Shown: piece after piece, positions 3,583 through 62,037 of the stretch
Position numbering within the stretch: the first letter of the stretch is position 1
Layout: the number at the start of each line of letters is the position of its first letter
DNA from: an uncultured Bacilli bacterium
Lineage (GTDB): Bacteria; Bacillota_I; Bacilli_A; RF39; UBA660
Assembly: GCA_947632325.1 (NCBI GenBank)
Contig: CANROU010000004.1
Location: 16,307-80,306, forward strand
Reading direction: 5' to 3'
Length of the DNA: 64,000 nucleotides
Program-made: the position numbers and the translations under genes
The notes under the pieces: model-generated
What the model was told of the DNA's origin: nothing
Databases searched by the model: none
What the model saw: only the letters and a program-made list of their open reading frames with translations

Positions 3583-5667
3583 TTGTTGTCTAGAGGATCA
3601 AATGCCCTGCAAGATGGTCCCAAAGATTGTGGAGTGTGTTGTTTATTAGCTATTATTAGGCATTATAAAGGTAATGTCAGTAAAGAATATCTGCGTAATT
3701 TAACACATACTACTACTGATGGCGTTAATTTTTATAATCTGTTACAAGCAGCTAAAAAAATTGGGTTTCAAGGTCGAGGAGTGAAAGGAGAATTAGAAAA
3801 ACTAGATAGTTTTATGTTACCCTGTATTGCTCATGTCATAATCGATAATCGTTATCAACATTTTATTGTGATTGACGAAATTAATTTTTATCGACAAACA
3901 CTTATTATATTTGATCCAGCTCAGGGAAAACGTAAAATTACTTTTACTGAATTTAAAAAAATATCAACCAATCAATATTTATATTTGAAGCCCTTAACTA
4001 TTTTACCATCAATTAATAGCAATCATCTAATTAGAAATATTATTGTACGCTTTCTTGGAACATATAAATTATCAATTTTTATTATTGTTATCTTATCTGG
4101 ACTTTATACAATTCTTCATATAATAGTAGGTTTCGACTTTAAATTTTTACTAGAATATGTTCTTTCAACTGGATCATATAAGAATGCTACTATTATTAGT
4201 GTTTTCACCACGACATTAATATCATTACAACTATTATTTAATTTTGCTAGAGAACATTTATTAAAATTATTAAACCACAATTTTAGCCATCACTTTATGC
4301 AATTAATTACACAACAAATTATTACCCTTCCTTATTCCTATTATAAAAACAGAACAACTGGGGAAATCATAAGCCGTATAAATGAATGTGAACAACTACA
4401 AAACTTTTTAATGCAACTTTTAGGGTTTGTTTTTATCGATCTTTTTCAAGTCATTGCTATCTTTATATTTTTATATTATTTAAATGCTTCATTGGCATTA
4501 TTTAGTTTTCTTTTTGGCTTTTTAGGATTTGCTTTGTTTTTTTTGCTGAATAATCCAATTAAAGAATTAATTGATACTACTAGTGAAGATAAAATTAAGC
4601 TACAGTCATTAATGATCGAGTCTATTAATGGAGTAGAAACAATCAAAGGATTGCATTTAGAAGAAGCTACTATCGAAAAAATAGATCGTTGTCATTGGCA
4701 TTTCCTACATAAGGATTATCAACTACATTTCTTATTATTAGTTTTAAATTATATTAAAGAACATCTTCTACAATTTGGTTTTATTCTTTTGTTATGGAGA
4801 GGTAGTTATTTAGTGATAGAAAAACGACTGTCTTTAGCTAATTTAATTTGCTTTCAAACTTTTTATTATTATTTCAGCCAACCTCTACAAACAATTTTTT
4901 CATTTATCATCAATATACCTACTATAAAGGTAATTATTAGGCGTATAACTGATTTATTTGATAATAAAAAGGAAATATTTGATTATCCTCGTAATAGATG
5001 TTTAGAAAATTTAACAGGCAAAATTAACATCACTAATTTATGCTTTCGCTATCAAGAACATTTACCTTTGTTAGAAGATATTACTATTAATATACCATCA
5101 CAGGCCAAATTAGTTATATATGGCCCTAGTGGCAGTGGAAAAAGTACATTAGTTAAACTTTTGATGAAATATTATCCTATAAATAATAACATGATTTATT
5201 TAGATGATATCGATATTAATCAATTATCGTTATCTACCATTCGTAATCACATTAGTTACGTTTCACAAAATGAAATTTGTTTCACGGATACCATATATAA
5301 TAATATTGTTTTATTTAATGAGGTAGATTATAATCTGTTCTTAAAAGTATGTCATATTTGTCGTGTTGATGAAATTATAAAAGATAAGATCTTAGGATAT
5401 GATCAAATGCTAGAGGAAAATGGGTTTAATTTAAGCGGTGGCGAAAAACAGCGTATTGTTTTGGCTAGAACTATTTTACGAGATAGTGCTATCTATATTT
5501 TTGATGAAGCTTTTAACCAGATAGATGTTGCATTAGAAAGGGAAATATTAAAAGATTTATTTAATTATTTAGAAAGTAAAAGCGTCATTGTAGTATCACA
5601 TCGTGATCACAATCAAGATTTATTTAAGCAAAAAGTAGTAATCAAAGAGGGAAAATGTGTTTGCTGA
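3583..5667 (+). CDS. Bacteriocin-processing ABC transporter with an N-terminal C39 cysteine peptidase domain (SunT/LagD/ComA class)
   Basis: The C39 triad context is intact: QDGPKDCGVCCL (Cys), QHFIVI (His), IFDPAQG (Asp). There are six TM segments. NBD motifs are Walker A GPSGSGKST, signature LSGGEKQR and Walker B IYIFDEA. TTG start sits 5 nt after GGGAGGTG. Confidence 0.9.
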   Translation: MLSRGSNALQDGPKDCGVCCLLAIIRHYKGNVSKEYLRNLTHTTTDGVNFYNLLQAAKKIGFQGRGVKGELEKLDSFMLPCIAHVIIDNRYQHFIVIDEINFYRQTLIIFDPAQGKRKITFTEFKKISTNQYLYLKPLTILPSINSNHLIRNIIVRFLGTYKLSIFIIVILSGLYTILHIIVGFDFKFLLEYVLSTGSYKNATIISVFTTTLISLQLLFNFAREHLLKLLNHNFSHHFMQLITQQIITLPYSYYKNRTTGEIISRINECEQLQNFLMQLLGFVFIDLFQVIAIFIFLYYLNASLALFSFLFGFLGFALFFLLNNPIKELIDTTSEDKIKLQSLMIESINGVETIKGLHLEEATIEKIDRCHWHFLHKDYQLHFLLLVLNYIKEHLLQFGFILLLWRGSYLVIEKRLSLANLICFQTFYYYFSQPLQTIFSFIINIPTIKVIIRRITDLFDNKKEIFDYPRNRCLENLTGKINITNLCFRYQEHLPLLEDITINIPSQAKLVIYGPSGSGKSTLVKLLMKYYPINNNMIYLDDIDINQLSLSTIRNHISYVSQNEICFTDTIYNNIVLFNEVDYNLFLKVCHICRVDEIIKDKILGYDQMLEENGFNLSGGEKQRIVLARTILRDSAIYIFDEAFNQIDVALEREILKDLFNYLESKSVIVVSHRDHNQDLFKQKVVIKEGKCVC

Positions 5668-6079
5668 TCAAAATTTTTATTATCCATTTATTAAAAAACA
5701 TTATTTGATGTTTATAGTGTTATTTTTATGTATAAGTTCCTTTTTATCACTAATTATCTTAAAGGGAAAAGTTAAAGTATATGATGAGATAGTGGGGATG
5801 GTGGAAGATGATAATATTATTTGTGTTGTACCACTTAAAGTATTAGAACACCTAAGTACACATCATGAAATAATAATTAATCGTAAGACATATTCTTATC
5901 AAATTTTAGAAATTACCAGTGATATATCAGTTAATGACAATATTATTTATAAACAAGTTATTTTAGATATTCCAATAGAAGATAACATAAGAAGAGAGCA
6001 TAATACATTTACAATGATAATACCTATAGAAGAAGTAAATTTATTACAAATAATTAAAACTATTATAAAGGAGGAATGA
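5657..6079 (+). CDS. Small single-TM protein coupled to the exporter (candidate export accessory or immunity protein)
   Basis: The GTG start overlaps the ABC stop, with AAGAGGGA upstream. It has an N-terminal TM helix and then a beta-rich domain. No family was recognised with certainty. Confidence 0.55.
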   Translation: MFADQNFYYPFIKKHYLMFIVLFLCISSFLSLIILKGKVKVYDEIVGMVEDDNIICVVPLKVLEHLSTHHEIIINRKTYSYQILEITSDISVNDNIIYKQVILDIPIEDNIRREHNTFTMIIPIEEVNLLQIIKTIIKEE

Positions 6080-6081
6080 TA

Positions 6082-6225
6082 ATGCAAAATATTAAAGATG
6101 ATCAAATGCAAATTATTACGGGAGGAGGTGTATCTGCTTGGGCTATCGCAGGAATTACGGCCATTATTACATTTGTTAGTGGCATAATTGAAGGCATCGT
6201 ACATCCTCGAAGCTGTGCAGATTAA
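6082..6225 (+). CDS. Double-glycine-leader bacteriocin precursor, peptide 1 (47 aa; below the ORF-track cut-off)
   Basis: My translation is MQNIKDDQMQIITGG|GVSAWAIAGITAIITFVSGIIEGIVHPRSCAD. AAGGAGG lies 7 nt upstream. Hydrophobic residues fall at -4, -7, -12 and -15 of the leader. The mature part is an amphipathic/hydrophobic helix with a GxxxG motif (GIIEG). Confidence 0.8.
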   Translation: MQNIKDDQMQIITGGGVSAWAIAGITAIITFVSGIIEGIVHPRSCAD

Positions 6226-6226
6226 T

Positions 6227-6397
6227 ATGGAATTAATAGAAGAAGATAAACTAACTAGTATCTCAGGAGGAGGTAGTATAAGCGGTACTATTATTAATGC
6301 CTTTAATAGTATTTTAGAAACTATTTTTAATTTTGGTGAACAACTTGGTTCTTCTCTTAGACGTATTCATAGTCATCAAATATGTCCTTTTCGTTAA
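6227..6397 (+). CDS. Double-glycine-leader bacteriocin precursor, peptide 2 (56 aa)
   Basis: MELIEEDKLTSISGG|GSISGTIINAFNSILETIFNFGEQLGSSLRRIHSHQICPFR. The ATG at 6227 is 1 nt after the peptide 1 stop. It has a 15-aa GG leader with the same hydrophobic spacing and a GxxxG motif (GEQLG). The longer form in the track (6188) overlaps peptide 1. Confidence 0.75.
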   Translation: MELIEEDKLTSISGGGSISGTIINAFNSILETIFNFGEQLGSSLRRIHSHQICPFR

Positions 6398-6596: not shown

Positions 6597-6794
6597 ATGA
6601 CACGGGAAACTGTTCGAAATGGAAATTTGGACGTTGCTTGGAAACGATTTAAGCAAAAAGTTGCTAGAGATGGTGTCCCTTCTGAATGCAAAAAAAGAGA
6701 ATGTTATGATAAACCAGGAGTTCGCAGAAGAAATGCGAAGAAAGAAGGAATAAAAAATTCTCGTAAAAGAAATCGTATGAGAGAAAGAGATTAG
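6597..6794 (+). CDS. rpsU: 30S ribosomal protein S21
   Basis: Typical S21 sequence (LDVAWKRFKQKV..., basic C-terminus). GGGAGGGA RBS. Confidence 0.93.
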   Translation: MTRETVRNGNLDVAWKRFKQKVARDGVPSECKKRECYDKPGVRRRNAKKEGIKNSRKRNRMRERD

Positions 6795-14492: not shown

Positions 14493-15068
14493 ATGGCAAG
14501 AGTAAAAAATGGCGCTACAACTAAGGCGCGTCATAAAAAAGTATTGAAAGAAGCAAAAGGATATTTTGGTAGTAAACATCGTTTATATAAAACAGCCAAA
14601 GAACAATTAATGCATTCTGGACAATATGCATACCGTGATCGTAAAAATAAAAAGCGTGATTTTAGAAAATTATGGATAACCCGTATTAATGCTGCATGTA
14701 GAACATGTGGTATCAGCTATTCTAGATTTATGGAAGGACTTCATAAGGCCGGAGTAGATATTAACCGTAAAATGTTAAGTGAAATAGCTATCAATGATAT
14801 GAAAAGTTTTGAAGAACTTGTTAAAGTAGCTAAAGATGGTAAAGAGGGTAAAATTACTAAAGTAGAAATTACTACTAAAGGTGTTAGTGTAAATTCTACT
14901 ACTAAAGATAAAGACACTACAAAAGAGACTAAAGTAGTTGAAGAAAAAAGTGATAATGTCGATTTATCAAAATTAACTGTAGCTAAATTAAAAGAAATGG
15001 CTAAAGAAAAAGGTATTGAAGGTATCTCAACAATGAAAAAAGCAGATTTAATTGCTGCTTTAAAATAA
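14493..15068 (+). CDS. rplT: 50S ribosomal protein L20 with a ~75-aa C-terminal extension ending in a HeH/Rho_N-like domain
   Basis: Residues 1-115 are a canonical L20. A K/E/T-rich linker follows, then [35 protein letters not shown]. Confidence 0.92.
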
Positions 15069-15159: not shown

Positions 15160-16119
15160 ATGGCAGTCGTATCAATGAATTATTTATTAGAAGCTGGTGT
15201 TCATTTTGGACATCAAAAAAGAAGATGGAATCCTAAAATGAAGGAATACATCTATACTACTAGAGATGACATTTATATTATTGATTTACAAAAAACTTCC
15301 AAAAAAATCGAGGAAGCTTATGCAGCAATAAAAGAAATTGCTGAAAATGGTGGTAAGTTCTTATTCGTAGGAACTAAAAAACAAGCTCAAGAAGCTGCTG
15401 AAGAAGAAGCTTTAAGAACAGAAATGTATTTTGTTAATGAACGTTGGTTAGGGGGAACTCTTACTAATTTTAAAACAATTCGTTCTAGGGTTAAACGCTT
15501 AGAAGAAATTGAAAAGATGGAACAAGATGGTACATTTGAACTACTTCCTAAAAAAGAAGTAATTCAAATTAAAAAAGAATATGATAAGTTAAATAAATAT
15601 CTACGTGGTATACGTGATATGAAAAAGATTCCTGAAGCAATGATTATCGTTGATCCTCGTAAAGAGGAAATCGCTATTAAGGAAGCCCGTATTTTACATA
15701 TTCCTGTTTTTGGAATAGTAGATACTAATTGTGATCCTGATATGGTAGATTACGTTATTCCAGGTAACGATGATGCTGTTAGATCTGTTAAACTTATTAT
15801 TGGCGTATTAGCTAATGCTATTGCGGAAGTTAACGGTAATGTTATAAATGATTATCTAACAGAAGAAGATAAAGTTAAAAACGATAAAAAGAGCGAAAAA
15901 GAACCTGTTAAAGAAGCAAAAGAAGAAATAATTGCTGAAGTTAGTGAACCAAAGGAAATTGTCAAAGAAGAAGAAAAAGTTGTTGAAGTTCAAAATAAAG
16001 AAGCAGACGTTGATTTAGAGAAACTTACTTTAGTGGAATTAAAAGAAATCGCTAAACAAAGAGGTATTAAAGGTTACTCAAAATTAAAGAAAAATGAATT
16101 AATTGACGCTTTAAAATAA
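15160..16119 (+). CDS. rpsB: 30S ribosomal protein S2 with a ~85-aa C-terminal extension ending in a HeH/Rho_N-like domain
   Basis: Canonical S2 core ([19 protein letters not shown]...). A K/E-rich linker follows, then [35 protein letters not shown]. Confidence 0.93.
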
Positions 16120-39245: not shown

Positions 39246-39653
39246 ATGAAAAATCGTAGTGAATTAAGAGAAATTGTTATGAAAATTTTATATCAAATTG
39301 CTATTTATCAAGAAAGTGATATTACTTATAATCTTGATGATTTAATAAAAGAACAAATGGAAATTGATAATAGTTTTGTTAAAGATTTAGTAACAGGCAT
39401 TATAAGAGAAAAAAGTAATTTACAAAAAATAGCCAATCGTTATTTAATTAATTGGCAAATAGAACGTTTAAACAAAGTTGATCAAGCTATTTTAAACATA
39501 GGCATTTATGAGTTATTATATACCAATACGCCAAGTATTGTAGCTATTAATGAAGCGATTGAACTTTCAAAAAAATATAGTGATGAAAAAGTTAGTAAGA
39601 TGATTAATGCAACATTAGATAAAATTTTTCATGAGGAAAAAGATCATGAATAA
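39246..39653 (+). CDS. nusB: Transcription antitermination factor NusB
   Basis: Size and pattern fit (REIVMKILYQ..., INEAIELSKKY). Confidence 0.88.
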   Translation: MKNRSELREIVMKILYQIAIYQESDITYNLDDLIKEQMEIDNSFVKDLVTGIIREKSNLQKIANRYLINWQIERLNKVDQAILNIGIYELLYTNTPSIVAINEAIELSKKYSDEKVSKMINATLDKIFHEEKDHE

Positions 39654-40902
39654 TAAATATATTACAGTTACCCAATTAACTCGGTACATTAAATATCAAT
39701 TCGAACAAGATCCAAATTTAAATGAGATATTTTTGAAAGGGGAAATTTCTAATTTTAAAGCTCATAGTAGGGGACATTACTATTTTACTATTAAAGATGA
39801 AAATTCCAGAATAAACGCCATTATGTTTAAAACTAATGTTAATAAACTTAAATTTATCCCTACAGAAGGGATGAAAGTATTAGTAACCGGTCAAGTACGT
39901 GTATATGAAGCAACTGGTGCTTATCAAATATATGTTAATGAGATGATTGAAGATGGAATTGGTAATTTATATGTAGCATACGAACAACTAAAAAAGAAGC
40001 TACAAGATGAAGGTTTATTTGATGAACATCATAAACAAAAAATACCCCGTATTCCTAATACCGTTGGTATTATAACAGCTCCAACAGGAGCAGCTATTAA
40101 AGATATATTATCAACCATAAAAAGACGTTGGCCTTTAGCAAAAACTATTTTATTTCCTAGCTTAGTTCAAGGAGAAGATGCCAAAGAAAATATTGTAAAA
40201 CAAATAAATGTAGCCCAAGAATATCCCATTGATGTATTAATTATAGGTCGGGGTGGAGGAAGTATAGAGGATTTATGGCCATTTAATGAAGAAATAGTCG
40301 CACGAGCTATTTACGAGTGCGCTATTCCCATTATTAGTGCTGTAGGGCATGAAATTGATTTTACAATTAGTGATTTTGTAGCCGATCTAAGAGCTCCAAC
40401 ACCAACAGCGGCTGCTGAATTAGCAGTACCTAATAAAAATGATGTCATAACATATCTTAATCAATTAAAAATTAGATCTAATCAAGTTATGAAAAAACAA
40501 CTTACTAGCGCTAAACATGATCTTGAACAATTGATGAAAAGATCTATTTGGCAAAATCCTTTACTTCTTTATGAAGCCAAAGAGCAACAATTTGATTATT
40601 TATTAGATAGATTAGCTAAAAGTATTACTATCTTATTAGAAAGATATCAAAATAAATTTACAACTATTACTTCCCACGCCTTATTTAAAAATCCTAAACG
40701 TTTTATTTTAGAAAATAATACTAATCGCTATTTACAAATAATTGCAAAATTAGAGGTATTAAATCCACTATTAACGCTTAAAAGAGGTTATACTATTATA
40801 AAAAGAGAAGAAGAAGTAATTACTACTAGCAAAATGTTAAAAAAACAAGATAAAATTGATATCGTTCTTAATGATGGAACAGTTAAAGCTGAAATATTAT
40901 AG
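39646..40902 (+). CDS. xseA: Exodeoxyribonuclease VII large subunit
   Basis: VTQLTRYIKYQFE..., OB fold, GRGGGSIEDLWPFNEE. The ATG at 39646 overlaps the nusB end. Confidence 0.93.
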   Translation: MNNKYITVTQLTRYIKYQFEQDPNLNEIFLKGEISNFKAHSRGHYYFTIKDENSRINAIMFKTNVNKLKFIPTEGMKVLVTGQVRVYEATGAYQIYVNEMIEDGIGNLYVAYEQLKKKLQDEGLFDEHHKQKIPRIPNTVGIITAPTGAAIKDILSTIKRRWPLAKTILFPSLVQGEDAKENIVKQINVAQEYPIDVLIIGRGGGSIEDLWPFNEEIVARAIYECAIPIISAVGHEIDFTISDFVADLRAPTPTAAAELAVPNKNDVITYLNQLKIRSNQVMKKQLTSAKHDLEQLMKRSIWQNPLLLYEAKEQQFDYLLDRLAKSITILLERYQNKFTTITSHALFKNPKRFILENNTNRYLQIIAKLEVLNPLLTLKRGYTIIKREEEVITTSKMLKKQDKIDIVLNDGTVKAEIL

Positions 40903-40910
40903 GAGGAAAC

Positions 40911-41141
40911 ATGGAAAAAGAAAAAAAAGAAACTAGTTTCGAAGAAAATTTAAGTAAATTAGAAGAAATTGTTAAAAACTTAGAAAGTGGGAATATTCCT
41001 TTAGATGAGGCTATTCAAAAATTTAATGAAGCTATGAATTTGGCCAAAATTTGCGATGATAAACTTAAAAAGGCCGAGGAGTCTGTTAATCAAATTCTAA
41101 AAGACGACGGAGGCTTAGAAAATTTCCAAATCGAAGAATAG
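40911..41141 (+). CDS. xseB: Exodeoxyribonuclease VII small subunit
   Basis: SFEENLSKLEEIVKNLESGNIPLDEAI is a typical XseB. Confidence 0.93.
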   Translation: MEKEKKETSFEENLSKLEEIVKNLESGNIPLDEAIQKFNEAMNLAKICDDKLKKAEESVNQILKDDGGLENFQIEE

Positions 41142-41157
41142 TAAATATAGTAAGTAT

Positions 41158-41180
41158 AAAAGTGGGACTATCCCACTTTT
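41158..41180. terminator. Bidirectional terminator hairpin between xseB and spoIVB
   Basis: AAAAGTGGGA-cta-TCCCACTTTT, a perfect 10-bp stem overlapping the spoIVB stop. Confidence 0.75.
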
Positions 41181-42177
41181 ATTGTTCTCCTTCTTCTAAC
41201 ATCTTTGTAATAAAGATACCATATCCCTTAGTACTATCATTGACGATAACATGCGTAACTGCACCAATTAGTTTGTTATCTTGCAGTATTGGTGAACCAC
41301 TCATACCTTGAACAACACCACCAGTTTCAGCTAACAAATTTTCATCTGTAATTTCAAATAAAATATTTTTCATTTGATTTTGTTTATCTATTTTAATAAT
41401 ATTAATGGCAAAAGATTCCACTACATTATCTTTAATAGATGTTTGCATAATAGCTGGACCAGTTTTAATTTCATTAATATCTTTAGCTACTTTATATAAT
41501 TTTTTATTTGGTAAAGTATCAGTATAGGTACCAAATATTCCTGAATTTTCATTTTCGCTTATATCTCCATAAATATCTTCTTTGAAAAATTGCGCCTTTT
41601 TTTCACCTGGGGAACCATTATTACTACGCTCGATATCTGTAACTGTTGCCTTAAAAATCTTGCCATCTTTTATTTCAAATTTTAGTCCTGTAGATTTTTC
41701 CATAATTTCATGTCCTAAACCGCCAAAAATTTTTGTTTCAGGATCGATATAAGTTAAGGTGCCTATACCATTGATTTGATCTTTTACATAAAGGCCTGTC
41801 TTATATATGTTATTTTCATCTTTCGTTAAGGTCAAGCTGAGTGTTTTTTCTTTATTATCCCGCATTATTCCTACTTCAATTGTTGATGTTTCATTAATAT
41901 TATCATTAATTAAATTGGCCATTTCTTGAATATTATTTACGGTTTGATTGTTAATACTTACAATTTTATCACCAATTACAAAACCTGAATCTTTACCAAT
42001 TAATTGATTATTTACCTCATAAAAACCAACAATTAAAATACCATTAGAATTGACTTGAATCCCAATGTTTTCTCCTCCAGGAATAACATAATCAGAATAA
42101 GCAAAGACATTAAAGGGTAATATCAATAATGATATTAAACCAATAAAGAGAACATGTAGTTTGTTTTTAAAATTCAT
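41179..42177 (-). CDS. spoIVB: SpoIVB peptidase (S55 family, PDZ plus serine peptidase)
   Basis: Signal anchor and PDZ domain (GDKIVSINNQTV), then GIGTLTYIDPETKIFGGLGHEI and GMSGSPI catalytic motifs. Confidence 0.88.
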   Translation of the reverse strand: MNFKNKLHVLFIGLISLLILPFNVFAYSDYVIPGGENIGIQVNSNGILIVGFYEVNNQLIGKDSGFVIGDKIVSINNQTVNNIQEMANLINDNINETSTIEVGIMRDNKEKTLSLTLTKDENNIYKTGLYVKDQINGIGTLTYIDPETKIFGGLGHEIMEKSTGLKFEIKDGKIFKATVTDIERSNNGSPGEKKAQFFKEDIYGDISENENSGIFGTYTDTLPNKKLYKVAKDINEIKTGPAIMQTSIKDNVVESFAINIIKIDKQNQMKNILFEITDENLLAETGGVVQGMSGSPILQDNKLIGAVTHVIVNDSTKGYGIFITKMLEEGEQ

Positions 42178-42377: not shown

Positions 42378-42713
42378 ATGGACAGTAAAGAAGAAAATAT
42401 GATAGAACAGACCGATAATAGTTTTAAAGAAGATATGGAAAAACATTCGGGAAAAGTTGGTTCTGTTATTGCCATAATAATTATTGTCATATTAATATTA
42501 TTAGTCATTTCCCAAATTATATTAGGAGTAATTAATTTAAATCGTATTTATCAACATGAAAAACCATATTTTTTGGTAGATAAAAAAACTAATGAAAATA
42601 CTGATAATAACGAAGTAACAGATATTTATTATTTTGGTGTATACAAAATTATTTTAAAAGAAAATACTACTACTAAAACAGCTTCTTTAAGACCATGGTT
42701 TTTTAAAGAATAA
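42378..42713 (+). CDS. Hypothetical single-TM protein
   Basis: ORF with GGAGGTG RBS and one central TM helix. No family was recognised. Confidence 0.55.
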   Translation: MDSKEENMIEQTDNSFKEDMEKHSGKVGSVIAIIIIVILILLVISQIILGVINLNRIYQHEKPYFLVDKKTNENTDNNEVTDIYYFGVYKIILKENTTTKTASLRPWFFKE

Positions 42714-42754
42714 GGTTATAAATTTAATTTGATTAACATATAATATAGTAAATA

Positions 42755-42783
42755 TTGACAAAATCAATAAAATATGTTAAAAT
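42755..42783 (+). promoter_or_regulatory. Consensus sigma-A promoter driving the large ncRNA
   Basis: TTGACA (42755-42760), 17-nt spacer, TGtTAAAAT (hexamer 42778-42783). Confidence 0.7.
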
Positions 42784-42789
42784 GATACA

Positions 42790-43377
42790 CGAAATTAGTG
42801 ATGGCACATTATTCTAGTCAATTAATTTATCAGGAAGACGGGGCTAAAAATCCGTTAAAGAGCATATTGTGAAGCGTTTGGTATCTGCTTTTTACGCCCA
42901 GTTTAGGGTGGATGCTGAATGGATAAGAGCATGGGCGCTTGTAATGGCATACAAATAACGACCCATGTTCCCAGATCTAATATTATATATTAGAAAACCT
43001 ATGTTATAATCGTGTTATGCATAGTGTAGCTTGTCTTGAGTGAGGATGTTGGGATATTTGTCCACCCTGTGATTGAATAGCTAACAATTATTGGGCATTG
43101 CAAATTGAAATCATACTTGCAAAAAAGAATTACTGATGAATATTGGTGAGGAAAACTCCTAGAGTGCATCTTATAGTGGGATTGCAGTGTGTACTAAGTG
43201 GCAATCAAGTCGTGCATTGGGTGACTATGCATTTGTTCTTGTAAAAGGGGAACCGCTTCTTTGGTAACAGGGAAGAGAAGAACAAGGGAAAGCCAACTTG
43301 ACCTAAGACACAAAGTTTACTATTATAAGGCCATTACAATTTAAAAGCAGAACTATAATAGTAATAGTTCTTTTTTT
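42790..43377 (+). ncRNA. Large structured ncRNA (~590 nt), most likely OLE (ornate, large, extremophilic) RNA
   Basis: The track shows no ORF on either strand across 42714-43420. The region is visibly GC-enriched relative to its neighbours. Complementary segments visible by eye: GGGTGGA 42906-12 with TCCACCC 43061-67; GAGCATGGG 42927-35 with CCCATGTTC 42962-70; GATTGC 43180-85 with GCAATC 43201-06; TTGTTCTT 43233-40 with AAGAACAA 43278-85. It ends in the terminator AGAACTAT/ATAGTTCT plus T7 (43349-43377). A 4-TM protein gene follows, and nusB-xseA-xseB lie upstream. Confidence 0.6.
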
Positions 43378-43439
43378 ATAATTTTGACTCTAGACATAAT
43401 GTAGGAGGTTAGTTATAATATTAAATAATGAGGTGAGAC

Positions 43440-44000
43440 ATGAAAATAAAAAAAGAGCGAACTAAACGTTCAACTTCTTCTAATTGGGTATTTAAAATTA
43501 CTATAATAGCTTTCCTACTATCTTTAATATTCTCGTTTTTAGCTGAAACGGTTCTACCTAATGTACCTGTTATTTTAGAACTTATCTTATTATTAGTAGT
43601 TATTGGACTAGGAATCATTTTCGATATGATTGGTATTGCTGTTGCTACAGCTAATGAGAGAGTTTTTCATTCGATGAGTTCTAAGGGATTAAAAGAAGCT
43701 AAAGTATCAGTAATGCTTAAAAAAAACGCTGATAAAACGGCTTCATTTTGTAATGATGTAATTGGTGATGTTTGTGGTATCATATCTGGATCCGCCGGTG
43801 CTATTATTGCTGTTTCCATAAGTAACAAAATAACTGCTATTACCAGTTTTACCATTACTTTAACCATCACAGCTATAATTGCAGCCATTACCATTGGTGG
43901 TAAAGCAATGTGCAAAACTATTGCTATGGAAAAAAGCGAAGAAATAGTTAAAAAATTCAGTAAAATTATTAGTATTTTTTATGCCCCCAAAAATAACTAA
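43440..44000 (+). CDS. oapA: Four-TM membrane protein, candidate OLE-associated protein OapA
   Basis: 186 aa with a basic N-terminus, four predicted TM helices and a duplicated acidic motif (FDMIGIAVA and NDVIGDVCGIISG). It lies directly downstream of the ncRNA. ATGAGGTGAGAC RBS. Confidence 0.5.
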   Translation: MKIKKERTKRSTSSNWVFKITIIAFLLSLIFSFLAETVLPNVPVILELILLLVVIGLGIIFDMIGIAVATANERVFHSMSSKGLKEAKVSVMLKKNADKTASFCNDVIGDVCGIISGSAGAIIAVSISNKITAITSFTITLTITAIIAAITIGGKAMCKTIAMEKSEEIVKKFSKIISIFYAPKNN

Positions 44001-44003
44001 AAA

Positions 44004-44037
44004 AAATAAATCTACTAATTAGATTTATTTTTTTTTT
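44004..44037. terminator. Bidirectional terminator after oapA
   Basis: AAATAAATCTA-ctaat-TAGATTTATTT followed by a T-run, with an A-run on the other side. Confidence 0.75.
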
Positions 44038-44128
44038 ACATAAAGTAAGCTACAATCGAAATTACAATGGATGCTACCATTATCAATGTTAAAAAAAGAG
44101 CTACTCCTTTTATAATTTTTTGATTCAT
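44036..44128 (-). CDS. 30-aa hydrophobic peptide (below the ORF-track cut-off)
   Basis: Minus-strand translation is MNQKIIKGVALFLTLIMVASIVISIVAYFM. GAGGTG lies 6 nt upstream of the ATG. It ends at the shared terminator. Confidence 0.4.
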   Translation of the reverse strand: MNQKIIKGVALFLTLIMVASIVISIVAYFM

Positions 44129-44233: not shown

Positions 44234-44860
44234 ATGAATATAACAATAAATAAAGCAAAAGCATCTATTTTAAGACAAAAGAAAATTTATTTAGCACTGA
44301 TTATATTAGTAATTATTGGCATTATCTGTGGTGCTGTTTTTACAACTATTATCACTGATATTGATAAAAATTTAGTCAAAGAACAATTAAGTCAATTTTT
44401 TAATCAAATTAAAATAAGTAATATTAACTATAATAAAGCTATAGTAAATAGTATTGCTTCTAATTTAATATATTCCTTTGGTATTTGGTTATTAGGTATA
44501 TCTATTATTGGATTACCTCTTATCATCTTTTTTCTTTTTATGAAAGGCTTTATTGTAGGTTTCGCTGGTTCATCTATTATATCCTTTTATGGTCTAAAGG
44601 GTATTATTGGAGCCTTTACTTATATTTTCCCACATCATTTAATATCATTAGCTATTAGCATCTTACTATCATTTTATGCTATATCTTTTTCTAATAAATT
44701 ATTTTCTTACTTATTTTTAAAAAAAGAAATAAATTTTAAACATGTAATGCACCGTTATATTAAAATATTAATTATTAGTATCATTGGATTGCTACTATGT
44801 TCGCTATTTGAAGTTTATCTTTCTCCTTTTCTAATTAAGTTTTTTACGAATATGATTTAA
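44234..44860 (+). CDS. spoIIM: Stage II sporulation protein M
   Basis: About 208 aa with the SpoIIM topology and pattern (N-terminal TM, then GISIIGLPLIIFFLFMKGFIVGF...). Confidence 0.75.
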   Translation: MNITINKAKASILRQKKIYLALIILVIIGIICGAVFTTIITDIDKNLVKEQLSQFFNQIKISNINYNKAIVNSIASNLIYSFGIWLLGISIIGLPLIIFFLFMKGFIVGFAGSSIISFYGLKGIIGAFTYIFPHHLISLAISILLSFYAISFSNKLFSYLFLKKEINFKHVMHRYIKILIISIIGLLLCSLFEVYLSPFLIKFFTNMI

Positions 44861-61014: not shown

Positions 61015-61920
61015 TTATTCATCTCCTTCAATGTGATTTCGTGGATGATATTTTTGATACTCTTCCCTTATGCGTTTATCACTAACATGAGTATAAATTT
61101 TAGTAGTAGTGATATCAGCATGTCCCAACAATTCCTGTATACTACGCAAATCAGCTCCATTATCTAATAAATGAGTAGCAAAACTATGGCGTAAAGTATG
61201 AGGGGTAACTGTTTTACTTATATTTTTTTTATCTAATAACTTTTTCAATATTTTAAAAAAGCCTTGGCGGGTAATAGGTTTACCATGATTATTCAAAAAC
61301 AGCATATTACTGTTTGTTTTTTTAACTAACTCTGGTCTATGTTGTAAATATTTTTGTAAACTATCTATACTGTATTCGCCTAGTGGTAAAATACGTTCCT
61401 TACTGCCTTTACCTAATACCCTAATGACACAATTAATAAAATCGATATCATCTAATGTAACATTAATAAGTTCTGATATTCTTAACCCTGAACCATACAT
61501 TAATTCTAACATGGCTTTATTACGATAATCAAAAGCAGACTCCAAAGGAATATCCAATAAATTATTAATTTCTTCAGCACTTAATACATTGGGAATTTTT
61601 TTGCGCAATTTTGGTCTAGCTAAAGAATCAGTTACATCATTTTCAATTAAATGCTGTCTAAATAAATGCTTATGAAAGTTTCTAATAGTAGTTAATTGAT
61701 GTGCCATAGTAGTAGTTGCTGTTTTTTTATTAGATAGCCATTTTAAATATGCCTCAACATTTTCAGTTTTAATATTGTCAATATTATTAATACCCTGATT
61801 TTGTAAATAATATATATATGTTTTTAAATCATAATAATATGATTTAAGAGTATTATTAGCCAAATGCCTTTCAAATCGACAATAATTTAAATATTCATCC
61901 AAACCATCCTCTACTTTCAT
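61015..61920 (-). CDS. xerD: Site-specific tyrosine recombinase XerD (RipX-like)
   Basis: Catalytic residues R (GLRISEL), HxxR (HTLRHSFATHLL), H and Y (LLGHADITTTKIYTHV). The xerD-deoB arrangement matches Bacillus. Confidence 0.85.
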   Translation of the reverse strand: MKVEDGLDEYLNYCRFERHLANNTLKSYYYDLKTYIYYLQNQGINNIDNIKTENVEAYLKWLSNKKTATTTMAHQLTTIRNFHKHLFRQHLIENDVTDSLARPKLRKKIPNVLSAEEINNLLDIPLESAFDYRNKAMLELMYGSGLRISELINVTLDDIDFINCVIRVLGKGSKERILPLGEYSIDSLQKYLQHRPELVKKTNSNMLFLNNHGKPITRQGFFKILKKLLDKKNISKTVTPHTLRHSFATHLLDNGADLRSIQELLGHADITTTKIYTHVSDKRIREEYQKYHPRNHIEGDE

Positions 61921-62037
61921 TTCATTCACCAACAATATTATACAAAAAATATAAGATAAATTCAACCATAGGTCATAATTAACTATTATTACTTTGCACT
62001 TCTTATATTTTTTGATAAAATAAAAGTGGTGATAAAA

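Follow-up and report, generated by a model that had tools for sequence, protein, structure and literature searches.

Organization of the Locus

The analysed window (the whole 64-kb stretch of DNA) carries a gene for an OLE RNA, the ornate, large, extremophilic RNA, which is a large and intricately folded bacterial noncoding RNA. This gene is followed on the same strand by oapA, encoding OLE-associated membrane protein A. OLE RNA, known since 2006, has an entry in Rfam, and a recent catalogue lists it in 2,822 GTDB genomes; the original OLE/OapA work (Puerta-Fernandez 2006, Block 2011, and later Breaker-laboratory papers) is cited in PMC12265935. For comparative analysis, the closest 80 OapA-homologue loci from GTDB species were used, and compared loci are denoted by L numbers. 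The following features were annotated:

39246–41141, + strand: nusB, xseA, and xseB, which form the conserved upstream side of the typical OLE gene block (NusB, XseA, and XseB models above cut-offs)
41179–42177, − strand: spoIVB (Peptidase_S55, 240.9 bits; TIGR02860, 314.4 bits)
42755–42783, + strand: predicted ole promoter of the sigma-A type; its −10 is extended (TTGACA-17-TGtTAAAAT, 11/12 matches plus TG)
42785–43350, + strand: OLE RNA gene (ole), RF01071 match; predicted transcript from ~42790 to ~43378 (~590 nt)
42971–42994, + strand: shortened J6/7 and P7 hairpin (CCAG + AUCUAAUAUUAUAUAUUAGA), from the RF01071 alignment and relatives
43211–43232, + strand: P13 hairpin capped by a GUGA tetraloop and carrying one bulged U (GUGCA-U-UGG-GUGA-CUAUGCAU)
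43349–43378, + strand: intrinsic terminator after ole (8-bp stem AGAACTAT/ATAGTTCT, 7-nt loop, T-run)
43391–43419, + strand: tentative candidate for a separate oapA promoter (TAGACA-17-TATAAT, 11/12 matches)
43440–44000, + strand: oapA, a 186-aa protein with the OapA hallmarks; Shine-Dalgarno sequence GAGGTG at 43429–43434
43999–44039, no strand assigned: A/U-rich hairpin between an A-run and a T-run (−12.6 kcal/mol, z −5.2)
44234–44860, + strand: spoIIM, a conserved downstream neighbour, also present at L052, L081/L082, and L088

The endospore genes of the window, namely spoIVB, spoIIM, yqfD, sspI, and one of the YabP family, support the assignment of the host to Bacillota. The nearest loci belong to uncultured Bacilli/Bacillota gut MAGs, and the MutS protein of the window shares 62% identity with its counterpart from an uncultured Bacilli bin. 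As noted in an earlier reading made from the sequence alone (hereafter, the sequence-only reading), positions 42714–43439 contain no credible ORF; only two short antisense ORFs of 56 aa (42999–43169) and 65 aa (43421–43618) were detected, the latter overlapping the oapA start. The same reading correctly described this region as richer in G+C than its surroundings (0.31–0.39 over 42700–43449 versus 0.21–0.24 just upstream); the G+C content of OLE is 0.38, compared with 0.274 for the whole window.

OLE RNA Match, Fold, and Conservation

The Rfam search proposed in the sequence-only reading was carried out, and the OLE model RF01071 matched the window at 343 bits (E 4.2e-97; gathering threshold of 50 bits) over model positions 1–616 without truncation, while the ROOL, GOLLD, and raiA models gave no match in the same search. 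Of the 198 columns with a conservation of at least 90%, the window RNA retains 191 (96%), and 130 of the 143 model base pairs are standard (91%), with 13 being non-standard. Deviations at conserved columns number seven (42831, 42868, 42973, 42976, 43008, 43135, and 43243), a count in the upper tail.

Covariation analysis, also proposed earlier, was performed on 69 sequences (the window and 68 relatives) that MAFFT had aligned without fitting them to the structure. In total, 85.3% of cells were paired versus 38–47% in slid controls, changes on both sides (compensatory) were found for 118 of 143 pairs, and none of 500 shuffles reached the observed values. Poor support was confined to two weakly aligned parts, namely P7, which is variable, and distal P9. 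The OLE fold is thus backed by strong covariation across the 68 relatives. The segments GGGTGGA (42906–42912) and TCCACCC (43061–43067), noted earlier as a pair, are indeed complementary; however, in the OLE model, GGGTGGA forms local pairs within the P5 hairpin and TCCACCC sits in the distal P9 stem, within a segment not conserved among relatives. A long-range helix between them was therefore rejected as lying outside the conserved fold, and their complementarity is most likely due to chance.

Helix names follow our own mapping of Rfam positions. The sole structural peculiarity of the window RNA is the shortened J6/7-P7, where a model loop is reduced from 29 nt to 3 nt and the conserved GUGGAGA of J6/7, with 3 nt missing, is reduced to CCAGA; most relatives have 60–75 nt in the J6/7-P7 region. 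Two of the seven deviations (42973 and 42976) fall here. This zone is already known as variable, and a shortened or absent P7/P8 is a widespread natural variant of OLE (PMC11332333). According to the literature, the J6/7 segment forms ‘k-turn 1b’ with J4a/5, and part of J6/7 is missing in the window. For OapB to bind, P13 needs a GNRA tetraloop together with a bulge of one nucleotide (PMC7936274); judging from the predicted P13 hairpin, both determinants appear to be intact.

Due to the shortened J6/7 and P7, together with the 13 non-standard pairs, the RF01071 score is the lowest in comparison with nine tested relatives that keep P7 and P8 (375–463 bits). This low score, the truncation itself, the number of deviations at conserved positions, and the loss of the canonical neighbours ispA, dxs, tlyA, argR, and recN from the neighbourhood might mark a non-functional remnant of OLE, decaying in a genome under reduction. 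We regard such decay as very unlikely, since the conserved positions and model pairs are largely intact, the ole promoter is near the consensus, the oapA ORF is undamaged, and the shortening belongs to the natural variation mentioned above.

OapA Protein

The oapA gene starts 90 nt past the end of the OLE model match. Its product corresponds to the earlier description of a 186-aa four-TM protein with a duplicated D-x-I-G motif, the two copies being D62-M-I-G and D106-V-I-G-D110. The AlphaFold2 model (pLDDT 86) contains long helices at residues 14–41, 44–70, 97–130, and 136–164, in agreement with the hydropathy segments. The DxxxD motif (D106-V-I-G-D110) was invariant in 23 of 23 aligned homologues, and the ORF is intact with all 40 family-invariant residues. 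In Halalkalibacterium halodurans, OapA is a 21-kDa protein with DxxxD at D100 and D104, and ole and oapA are known to occur nearly always in tandem. The protein is divergent, being at most 66% identical to any entry of the protein collection searched; contigs L081 and L082, originating from other samples, encode identical OapA. No NCBIfam model matched OapA.

Comparison with the CNNM family (PF01595) gave 24.4 bits, below the cut-off of 28.4, and a score just under the Pfam cut-off has also been published for OapA. In a Foldseek search against the PDB, the best folds were MtCorB (7M1T) and the CorC transmembrane domain (7CFF/7CFG), with a probability of 1.00 and TM-scores of 0.48–0.56 normalised to the query; 7M1T is the same protein as 7M1U, the reported top match for H. 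halodurans OapA. Searching the PDB by sequence with the OapA profile yielded no match at E 0.01, so the link to CorB/CorC is one of fold comparison alone. OapA proteins are also expected to lack the proline conserved in true CNNM domains.

Transcription Signals

The ole promoter had been called near-perfect in the sequence-only reading, which agrees with its 11/12 matches. Promoter-like sites are not rarer than expected in the AT-rich window (15 found versus 12.7 expected from shuffles), and the motif alone is too common in such DNA to be informative; the promoter is meaningful because its position is conserved, with an equivalent site of at least 10/12 in 58 of 67 relatives versus 2.5% of random windows. 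The terminator after ole, previously described as strong, is real but of moderate strength (−9.6 kcal/mol, z −2.6, just two G-C pairs), and the consensus scan made no call at 43349–43378. It was also found in the nearest relatives (L083/L084 and L088/L089), and a hairpin with a T-run lies 3′ of OLE in 24 of the 69 sequences, the window included, versus 3% in the background.

Upstream of oapA, an extended −10 (TGnTATGAT) occurs at the same place in the nearest relatives; in the wider clade, a promoter between OLE and oapA is not conserved (3/66 with a crude start-codon finder). The hairpin at 43999–44039, which none of 200 shuffles folded as well as, is probably a bidirectional terminator common to oapA and a convergent 30-aa ORF.

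The ole cluster of H. halodurans forms one polycistronic transcript (PMC12265935). The sequence-only reading had stressed that ole here has its own promoter and terminator and is not embedded in an operon; this does differ from H. halodurans, but the stand-alone layout is the rule in the gut Bacilli clade and hence not unusual.

Alternatively, the structured region might not be an independent RNA but a cis-acting, riboswitch-like leader at the 5′ end of the oapA mRNA. It lies immediately upstream of oapA on the same strand, read-through of the moderate terminator is plausible, most GTDB relatives have no good promoter between OLE and oapA, and polycistronic transcription is documented in H. 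halodurans. However, other genes separate OLE from oapA in L004 (1.7 kb) and L014 (3.7 kb), L001, L026, and L079 carry an oapA homologue but no OLE in the locus, and terminator-like hairpins 3′ of OLE are enriched over the background. In addition, OLE is described in the literature as a stable, abundant, trans-acting component of a ribonucleoprotein. A mere leader is, therefore, highly improbable, even slightly more so than the decayed relic, and the region is best read as an independent OLE RNA.

Genomic Neighbourhood

An OLE match was located upstream and on the same strand in 77 of the 80 OapA-homologue loci. Among these loci, ispA was the gene next to the locus on the upstream side in 1 of 65 cases, and dxs was the one on the downstream side in 4 of 69. 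The sequence-only reading was right that these isoprenoid genes are absent nearby; it was wrong to take this as unusual, as they are nearly always missing in the clade. Its emphasis on an unusual context was overstated in general, since both the promoter and terminator around OLE and the missing ispA and dxs are the norm there.

The nusB-xseA-xseB block also precedes OLE in L052, L068, and L080. In L052, the closest syntenic relative, the gene order is mutS-nusB-xseA-xseB-OLE-oapA-spoIVB(+)-spoIIM, relative to which spoIVB of the window has been inverted and moved upstream of ole. The neighbourhood of nusB-xseA-xseB with spoIVB and spoIIM is thus the canonical OLE block with deletions and with spoIVB relocated and inverted. 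Sporulation genes near ole are already on record (PMC11332333). The 111-aa membrane ORF upstream of ole (42378–42713) was considered as a conserved OLE neighbour and rejected because no homologue was found in any of the 80 loci. Genes for OapB (KOW; ybzG) and OapC (L7Ae; ybxF) were not detected in the 64-kb window, which says little about the whole genome, where the literature would lead one to expect both genes and no mpfA; a bS21 gene is present in the window at 6597–6794.

Identity and Proposed Working of the Locus

The OLE RNA/OapA pair suggested in the sequence-only reading was borne out by the RF01071 match, the covariation, and the OapA hallmarks. Because the RNA has the sequence and fold of OLE, the protein has the hallmarks of OapA, and both genes are linked across relatives, we conclude with high confidence that positions 42785–44000 represent a functional ole-oapA locus of a low-G+C, endospore-forming, uncultured member of Bacillota. 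The fallback of that reading, an undescribed class of large noncoding RNA only resembling OLE, was rejected with a practically negligible chance of being right, as the full-length covariance-model match exceeds the family threshold by nearly 300 bits, the window RNA aligns column by column with 68 OLE RNAs, and no supporting point was left after the RF01071 test. The window RNA is a clear copy of the described OLE RNA and an ordinary new example, not a new kind of RNA.

From the predicted signals, the consensus sigma-A promoter would drive a ~590-nt transcript ending at the moderate terminator, and oapA might be expressed by read-through, from the second promoter-like site, or by both. Such a layout would yield far more RNA than protein. 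By analogy with H. halodurans, OapA may bind OLE RNA and hold it at the membrane, OapB may bind the P13 GUGA loop with its bulged U, and OapC with ribosomal protein bS21 may remodel the P5-P6 k-turn region. The particle could then aid tolerance of cold, short-chain alcohols, excess Mg2+, and poor carbon sources, as carried over from the same organism.

According to a hypothesis from the literature, to which we give about an even chance, OapA is a CNNM/CorB-like divalent-cation transporter without cytosolic CBS and CorC domains, and OLE RNA takes over the sensing and regulatory role of those domains. More speculatively, the OLE of this lineage of uncultured spore-forming gut Bacilli might form a self-contained transcription unit having its own consensus promoter and terminator, with oapA expressed separately, a J6/7-P7 too minimal for k-turn 1b, all isoprenoid links lost, and links to DNA repair and sporulation kept. 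If true, OLE could fulfil its core function without its isoprenoid association and without the switch formed by k-turn 1b, and its connection with sporulation would be the more basic one.

The locus alone is of little weight, and standard annotation pipelines would label ole here. Its value is mainly comparative, combining a divergent OLE (no more than 73% identity to GTDB representatives), a divergent OapA, and a naturally minimised J6/7-P7. Together with its relatives, the window indicates that ole in gut Bacilli is usually an autonomous transcription unit without isoprenoid neighbours, and such a comparison helps to sort essential from incidental features of the OLE ribonucleoprotein.

Comparison with Known Systems

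OapA has a transmembrane fold similar to that of the CNNM-family Mg2+ transporters MpfA/CorB/CorC (7M1T, 7CFF) and a weak PF01595 match. These have three transmembrane helices, whereas OapA has four, carries the DxxxD motif, and lacks the CBS pair and the CorC_HlyC domain. MpfA is reported to be anticorrelated with OLE, and no MpfA gene was seen within the 64-kb window.

The reduced OLE variants 1 and 2 were described from the uncultured gut clades TANB77 and RF39 (Fernando and Breaker 2024, PMC11332333). The window RNA resembles them in its variation from J6/7 through P8, its low-G+C gut MAG host, and its intermediate Rfam score; the published classes were defined with a different covariance model (cut-offs of 390, 310, and 235 bits), not by the RF01071 bits used here. 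Variant 2 (RF39 type) lacks P7 and P8 entirely, whereas the window RNA has a full-length P8 and a 22-nt P7 stub. Variant 1 (TANB77 type) has shorter P7, P8, and P9, often without the OapB site at the P13 tip, whereas in the window P7 alone is shortened, P9 is full-length, and the P13 tip is intact. These features set the window OLE apart from variant 2 and probably also from a typical variant 1. The variant 2 description fits L058, L076, and L078, where P7 and P8 are fully absent (222–227 bits).

The ribonucleoprotein of H. halodurans, an alkaliphile, differs from that of the uncultured gut-type spore-former studied here in that its ole lies inside a long polycistronic operon, whereas the window ole has its own predicted consensus promoter and terminator. 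In the window, ispA and dxs are absent nearby, and the RNA has a shortened J6/7 and P7 and no P11. The two systems share P4a, P5, P6, P8, P9, P10, and P12–P14 with the conserved joining sequences, the P13 GUGA with the bulged U, oapA directly downstream, an OapA with four transmembrane helices and DxxxD, and nusB, xseA, and xseB upstream.

Identification and fold of the OLE RNA

With the gathering threshold of each of the 4,227 Rfam families applied, the entire window yielded two matches: a tRNA at 105-178 and the large structured OLE RNA (RF01071) at 42785-43350 (+), which scored 343 bits (threshold 50, E 4.2e-97). The OLE match was untruncated (model positions 1-616), in line with the ~590-nt RNA proposed as OLE in the sequence-only reading; ROOL, GOLLD, and raiA had no match anywhere in the window at these thresholds. 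The G+C content was 0.38 for OLE versus 0.274 for the entire window, and 0.31-0.39 across the OLE region versus 0.21-0.24 just upstream. The same reading had described the region as G+C-rich and free of substantial ORFs, and this held: between 42713 (stop of a 111-aa ORF) and 43440 (start of the 186-aa ORF), two ORFs were found, both short and antisense.

Features of the ole-oapA region
42755-42783 (+), predicted promoter, TTGACA-17-TAAAAT with TG before the -10 element
42999-43169 (-), antisense ORF, 56 aa
43349-43378 (+), predicted terminator, 8-bp hairpin then T-run, -9.6 kcal/mol, z -2.6
43421-43618 (-), antisense ORF, 65 aa, overlapping the oapA start

The fold was evaluated in the best 80 GTDB-species loci for homologues of the downstream protein, in which OLE was found by nhmmer; 68 near-full-length copies and the window RNA were aligned with the structure-blind MAFFT. 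The Rfam structure projected on the window RNA comprised 143 base pairs, 130 of them standard. Standard pairing occurred in 85.3% of alignment cells, versus 38-47% with the 3' partners slid by 1-3 columns, and two-sided changes were observed in 118 of the 143 pairs. None of the 500 shuffles equalled any observed pairing measure. Poor covariation support was limited to the variable P7 and distal P9, regions in which the alignment itself cannot be relied on. Of the 198 columns conserved at ≥90%, the window RNA matched 191. From the full model match, the covariation-backed fold, and the retained conserved columns, it is an intact OLE RNA.

A long-range pairing between 42906-42912 and 43061-43067, noticed earlier, lies outside the conserved OLE fold and was rejected: 42906-42912 forms the 3' side of the P5 hairpin, and 43061-43067 belongs to the distal P9 stem, where the sequence is unrelated in the aligned relatives.

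Helical organization

Helix names were assigned to Rfam positions via the literature nucleotide numbers for P5, P6, J4a/5, and J6/7.

Elements of the OLE RNA in Rfam positions (inferred mapping)
P4a, 54-73
P5, 93-139
P6, 144-190
J6/7, 191-197
P7, 198-245
P8, 253-280
P9, 289-385
P10, 406-416
P11, 426-435
P12-P14, 436-596

All helical elements were present in the window OLE save P11, which is likewise absent from nearly all gut relatives in the alignment. Its P7 is a 22-nt A/U hairpin (60-75 nt in most relatives), and J6/7 is 3 nt short (GUGGAGA to CCAGA). Because of this shortening, the window RNA scored lower (343 bits) than nine relatives retaining P7 and P8 (375-463 bits). Three relatives without P7 and P8 reached 222-227 bits; the published variant class boundaries (PMC11332333) were set with a different covariance model and are not transferable to these Rfam scores. 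Variant 2, the reduced OLE RNA of the RF39 clade, is ruled out since P8 is present. The window OLE is also atypical for variant 1 (TANB77 type) in having an intact P9 and OapB site. A GUGA tetraloop and one bulged U are present in P13, where a GNRA tetraloop and a one-nucleotide bulge are the reported determinants for OapB binding (PMC7936274). The minimised J6/7-P7 is the sole distinctive trait of the window OLE and falls within a zone already known to vary.

Most gut-Bacilli OLE RNAs conserve a distal P7 insert, GCCUAUACG...CUGAUGGAC (alignment columns ~225-265; e.g., 5480-5530 in locus L031), which neither the window nor the Rfam consensus loop contains and which may be a clade-specific motif.

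Transcription signals

Of 67 relatives, 58 have a counterpart of the ole promoter that scores ≥10/12 at the equivalent position (versus 2.5% of random windows), mostly as TTGACA-17-TGnTATAAT. The sequence-only reading had assigned the RNA its own promoter and a strong terminator; the promoter, the hairpin, and the T-run stand, but the strength does not. At -9.6 kcal/mol and z -2.6, the terminator is moderate, and it was missed by a consensus scan because it has two G-C pairs only. Of 69 sequences including the window, 24 have a short hairpin with a T-run after OLE (≤-5 kcal/mol), versus a background of 3%, and many other OLE sequences have a T-run directly after the terminal helix. The nearest relatives (OapA 60-66% identical) likewise have a terminator and then an extended -10 ahead of oapA; a promoter between OLE and oapA is rare in the wider clade. 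We infer that ole would be an autonomous, strongly expressed unit in the window, with oapA expressed at a lower level via read-through, its own promoter, or both.

The OapA protein and its linkage to OLE

The 186-aa product had a Pfam CNNM match of 24.4 bits, below the 28.4 cut-off, as is reported for OapA; the NCBIfam scan gave no match. The protein collection held 3,944 homologues, nearly all unnamed, the closest non-self one being 66% identical. D106-V-I-G-D110 was invariant among 23 aligned homologues and corresponds to the DxxxD motif that sets OapA apart from CNNM domains (D100 and D104 in the 21-kDa transmembrane OapA of H. halodurans). The AlphaFold2 model was confident (pLDDT 86) and showed four long helices, in agreement with the hydropathy profile. 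A profile search of PDB sequences gave no match; the top PDB folds (TM-scores ~0.5) were MtCorB (7M1T), an archaeal CNNM, and the transmembrane domain of bacterial CorC (7CFF, 7CFG), which reproduces the published OapA-CorB relation. Of the 80 homologue loci, 77 have a same-strand OLE match upstream of the oapA homologue, mostly directly adjacent to it. Together these features identify the downstream four-TM protein as OapA, as had been proposed.

That OLE is a purely cis-acting leader of oapA is argued against by L004 and L014, where other genes separate the two (1.7-3.7 kb), and by three oapA homologues without OLE in the fetched locus (L001, L026, L079). The latter may have ole elsewhere in the genome, because oapA has been reported only in genomes containing ole. 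The OapA homologues of these five loci and of contigs L086/L087, with OLE distant or not in the fetched locus, are ~50-57% identical. In L086, a 167-aa ORF (3-506) was called directly upstream of oapA, and the sequence there is coding-like, not OLE. Short metagenome contigs of the nearest relatives (L081-L089) tend to start 500-630 nt upstream of oapA, inside OLE or at its 5' edge; such a highly conserved RNA may be a point where assemblies break.

Gene neighbourhood

Upstream of ole lie mutS, nusB, xseA, xseB, a convergent spoIVB, and the 111-aa membrane ORF; oapA is followed by a 30-aa ORF (minus strand) and spoIIM. In the closest syntenic relative, the uncultured Bacilli bin L052 (MutS identity 62%), a single strand carries them as mutS-nusB-xseA-xseB-OLE-oapA-spoIVB-spoIIM. 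Anaerosolibacter (L068) has the classical layout of nusB, xseA, xseB, a 314-aa ORF (ispA position), OLE, oapA, and a 631-aa ORF (dxs position), with spoIVB ~6 kb beyond the latter. Family scans of flanking ORFs, not resolved locus by locus, detected a polyprenyl synthase and DXP synthases among neighbours of this kind. Comparison with these layouts shows that the window carries the canonical block minus genes including ispA and dxs, with local relocation and inversion of spoIVB. Among the best 80 loci, a polyprenyl synthase lies directly upstream of OLE in 1/65 and a DXP synthase directly after oapA in 4/69 cases, and the other neighbours were highly diverse. With isoprenoid genes so rarely present in the clade, the window context is normal for it, not unusual as first supposed. 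Sporulation genes are already among the common ole neighbours, and OLE is correlated with sporulation proteins (PMC11332333).

The 111-aa ORF (42378-42713, +), directly upstream of the ole promoter, has one hydrophobic segment and weak pilin-N/ComGE-like matches only; none of the 80 related loci contains a homologue. The hydrophobic 30-aa ORF MNQKIIKGVALFLTLIMVASIVISIVAYFM (44036-44128, -), convergent to oapA, has a GAGGTG ribosome-binding site, and L088 and L089, the nearest relatives, share a homologue of it (~60% identity) in the corresponding position; it probably encodes a real small membrane peptide.

Other features of the window

The ribosomal proteins L20 (191 aa, 14493-15068) and S2 (319 aa, 15160-16119) each have a ~35-aa Rho_N/HeH (SAP-like) domain at the C-terminus (PF07498, E 4e-10 and 1e-10, respectively), which is unusual for two ribosomal proteins of one genome. 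A tyrosine recombinase (XerC/XerD type or phage-integrase family; 61015-61965, -; PF00589, E 2e-53) adjoins a metalloenzyme-superfamily gene near the window end. A C39-peptidase ABC exporter (3583-5667) precedes two small ORFs with double-glycine-type leaders; together (3583-6397) they probably form a class II bacteriocin locus.

Small ORFs after the exporter
6076-6225, leader ...ITGGG, weak lactococcin G-beta match
6188-6397, leader ...ISGGG

Comparison with known OLE particles

In H. halodurans, OLE RNA forms dimers, binds OapA, and is localised at the membrane (PMC12265935). It requires OapB and OapC and also binds bS21, and cells without the particle are sensitive to cold, ethanol, Mg2+, and poor carbon sources. 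The reading that we favour, with roughly even confidence, is that OapA would be a cation transporter with OLE RNA as its regulatory subunit, because the OapA fold is CorB/CorC-like yet without cytosolic regulatory domains. Family scans found no genes for MpfA (a CNNM-family Mg2+ transporter), OapB, or OapC in the 64-kb window, which is uninformative for a sample of that size. The bS21 gene rpsU (6597-6794; PF01165, 51 bits), closely followed by a YabP-family gene and yqfD, says little, being near-universal. The feature is real, its main interpretation as an OLE/OapA pair is correct, and the locus adds to a well-known class; the arrangement in H. halodurans is polycistronic (PMC12265935), whereas ole in the window would be autonomous.
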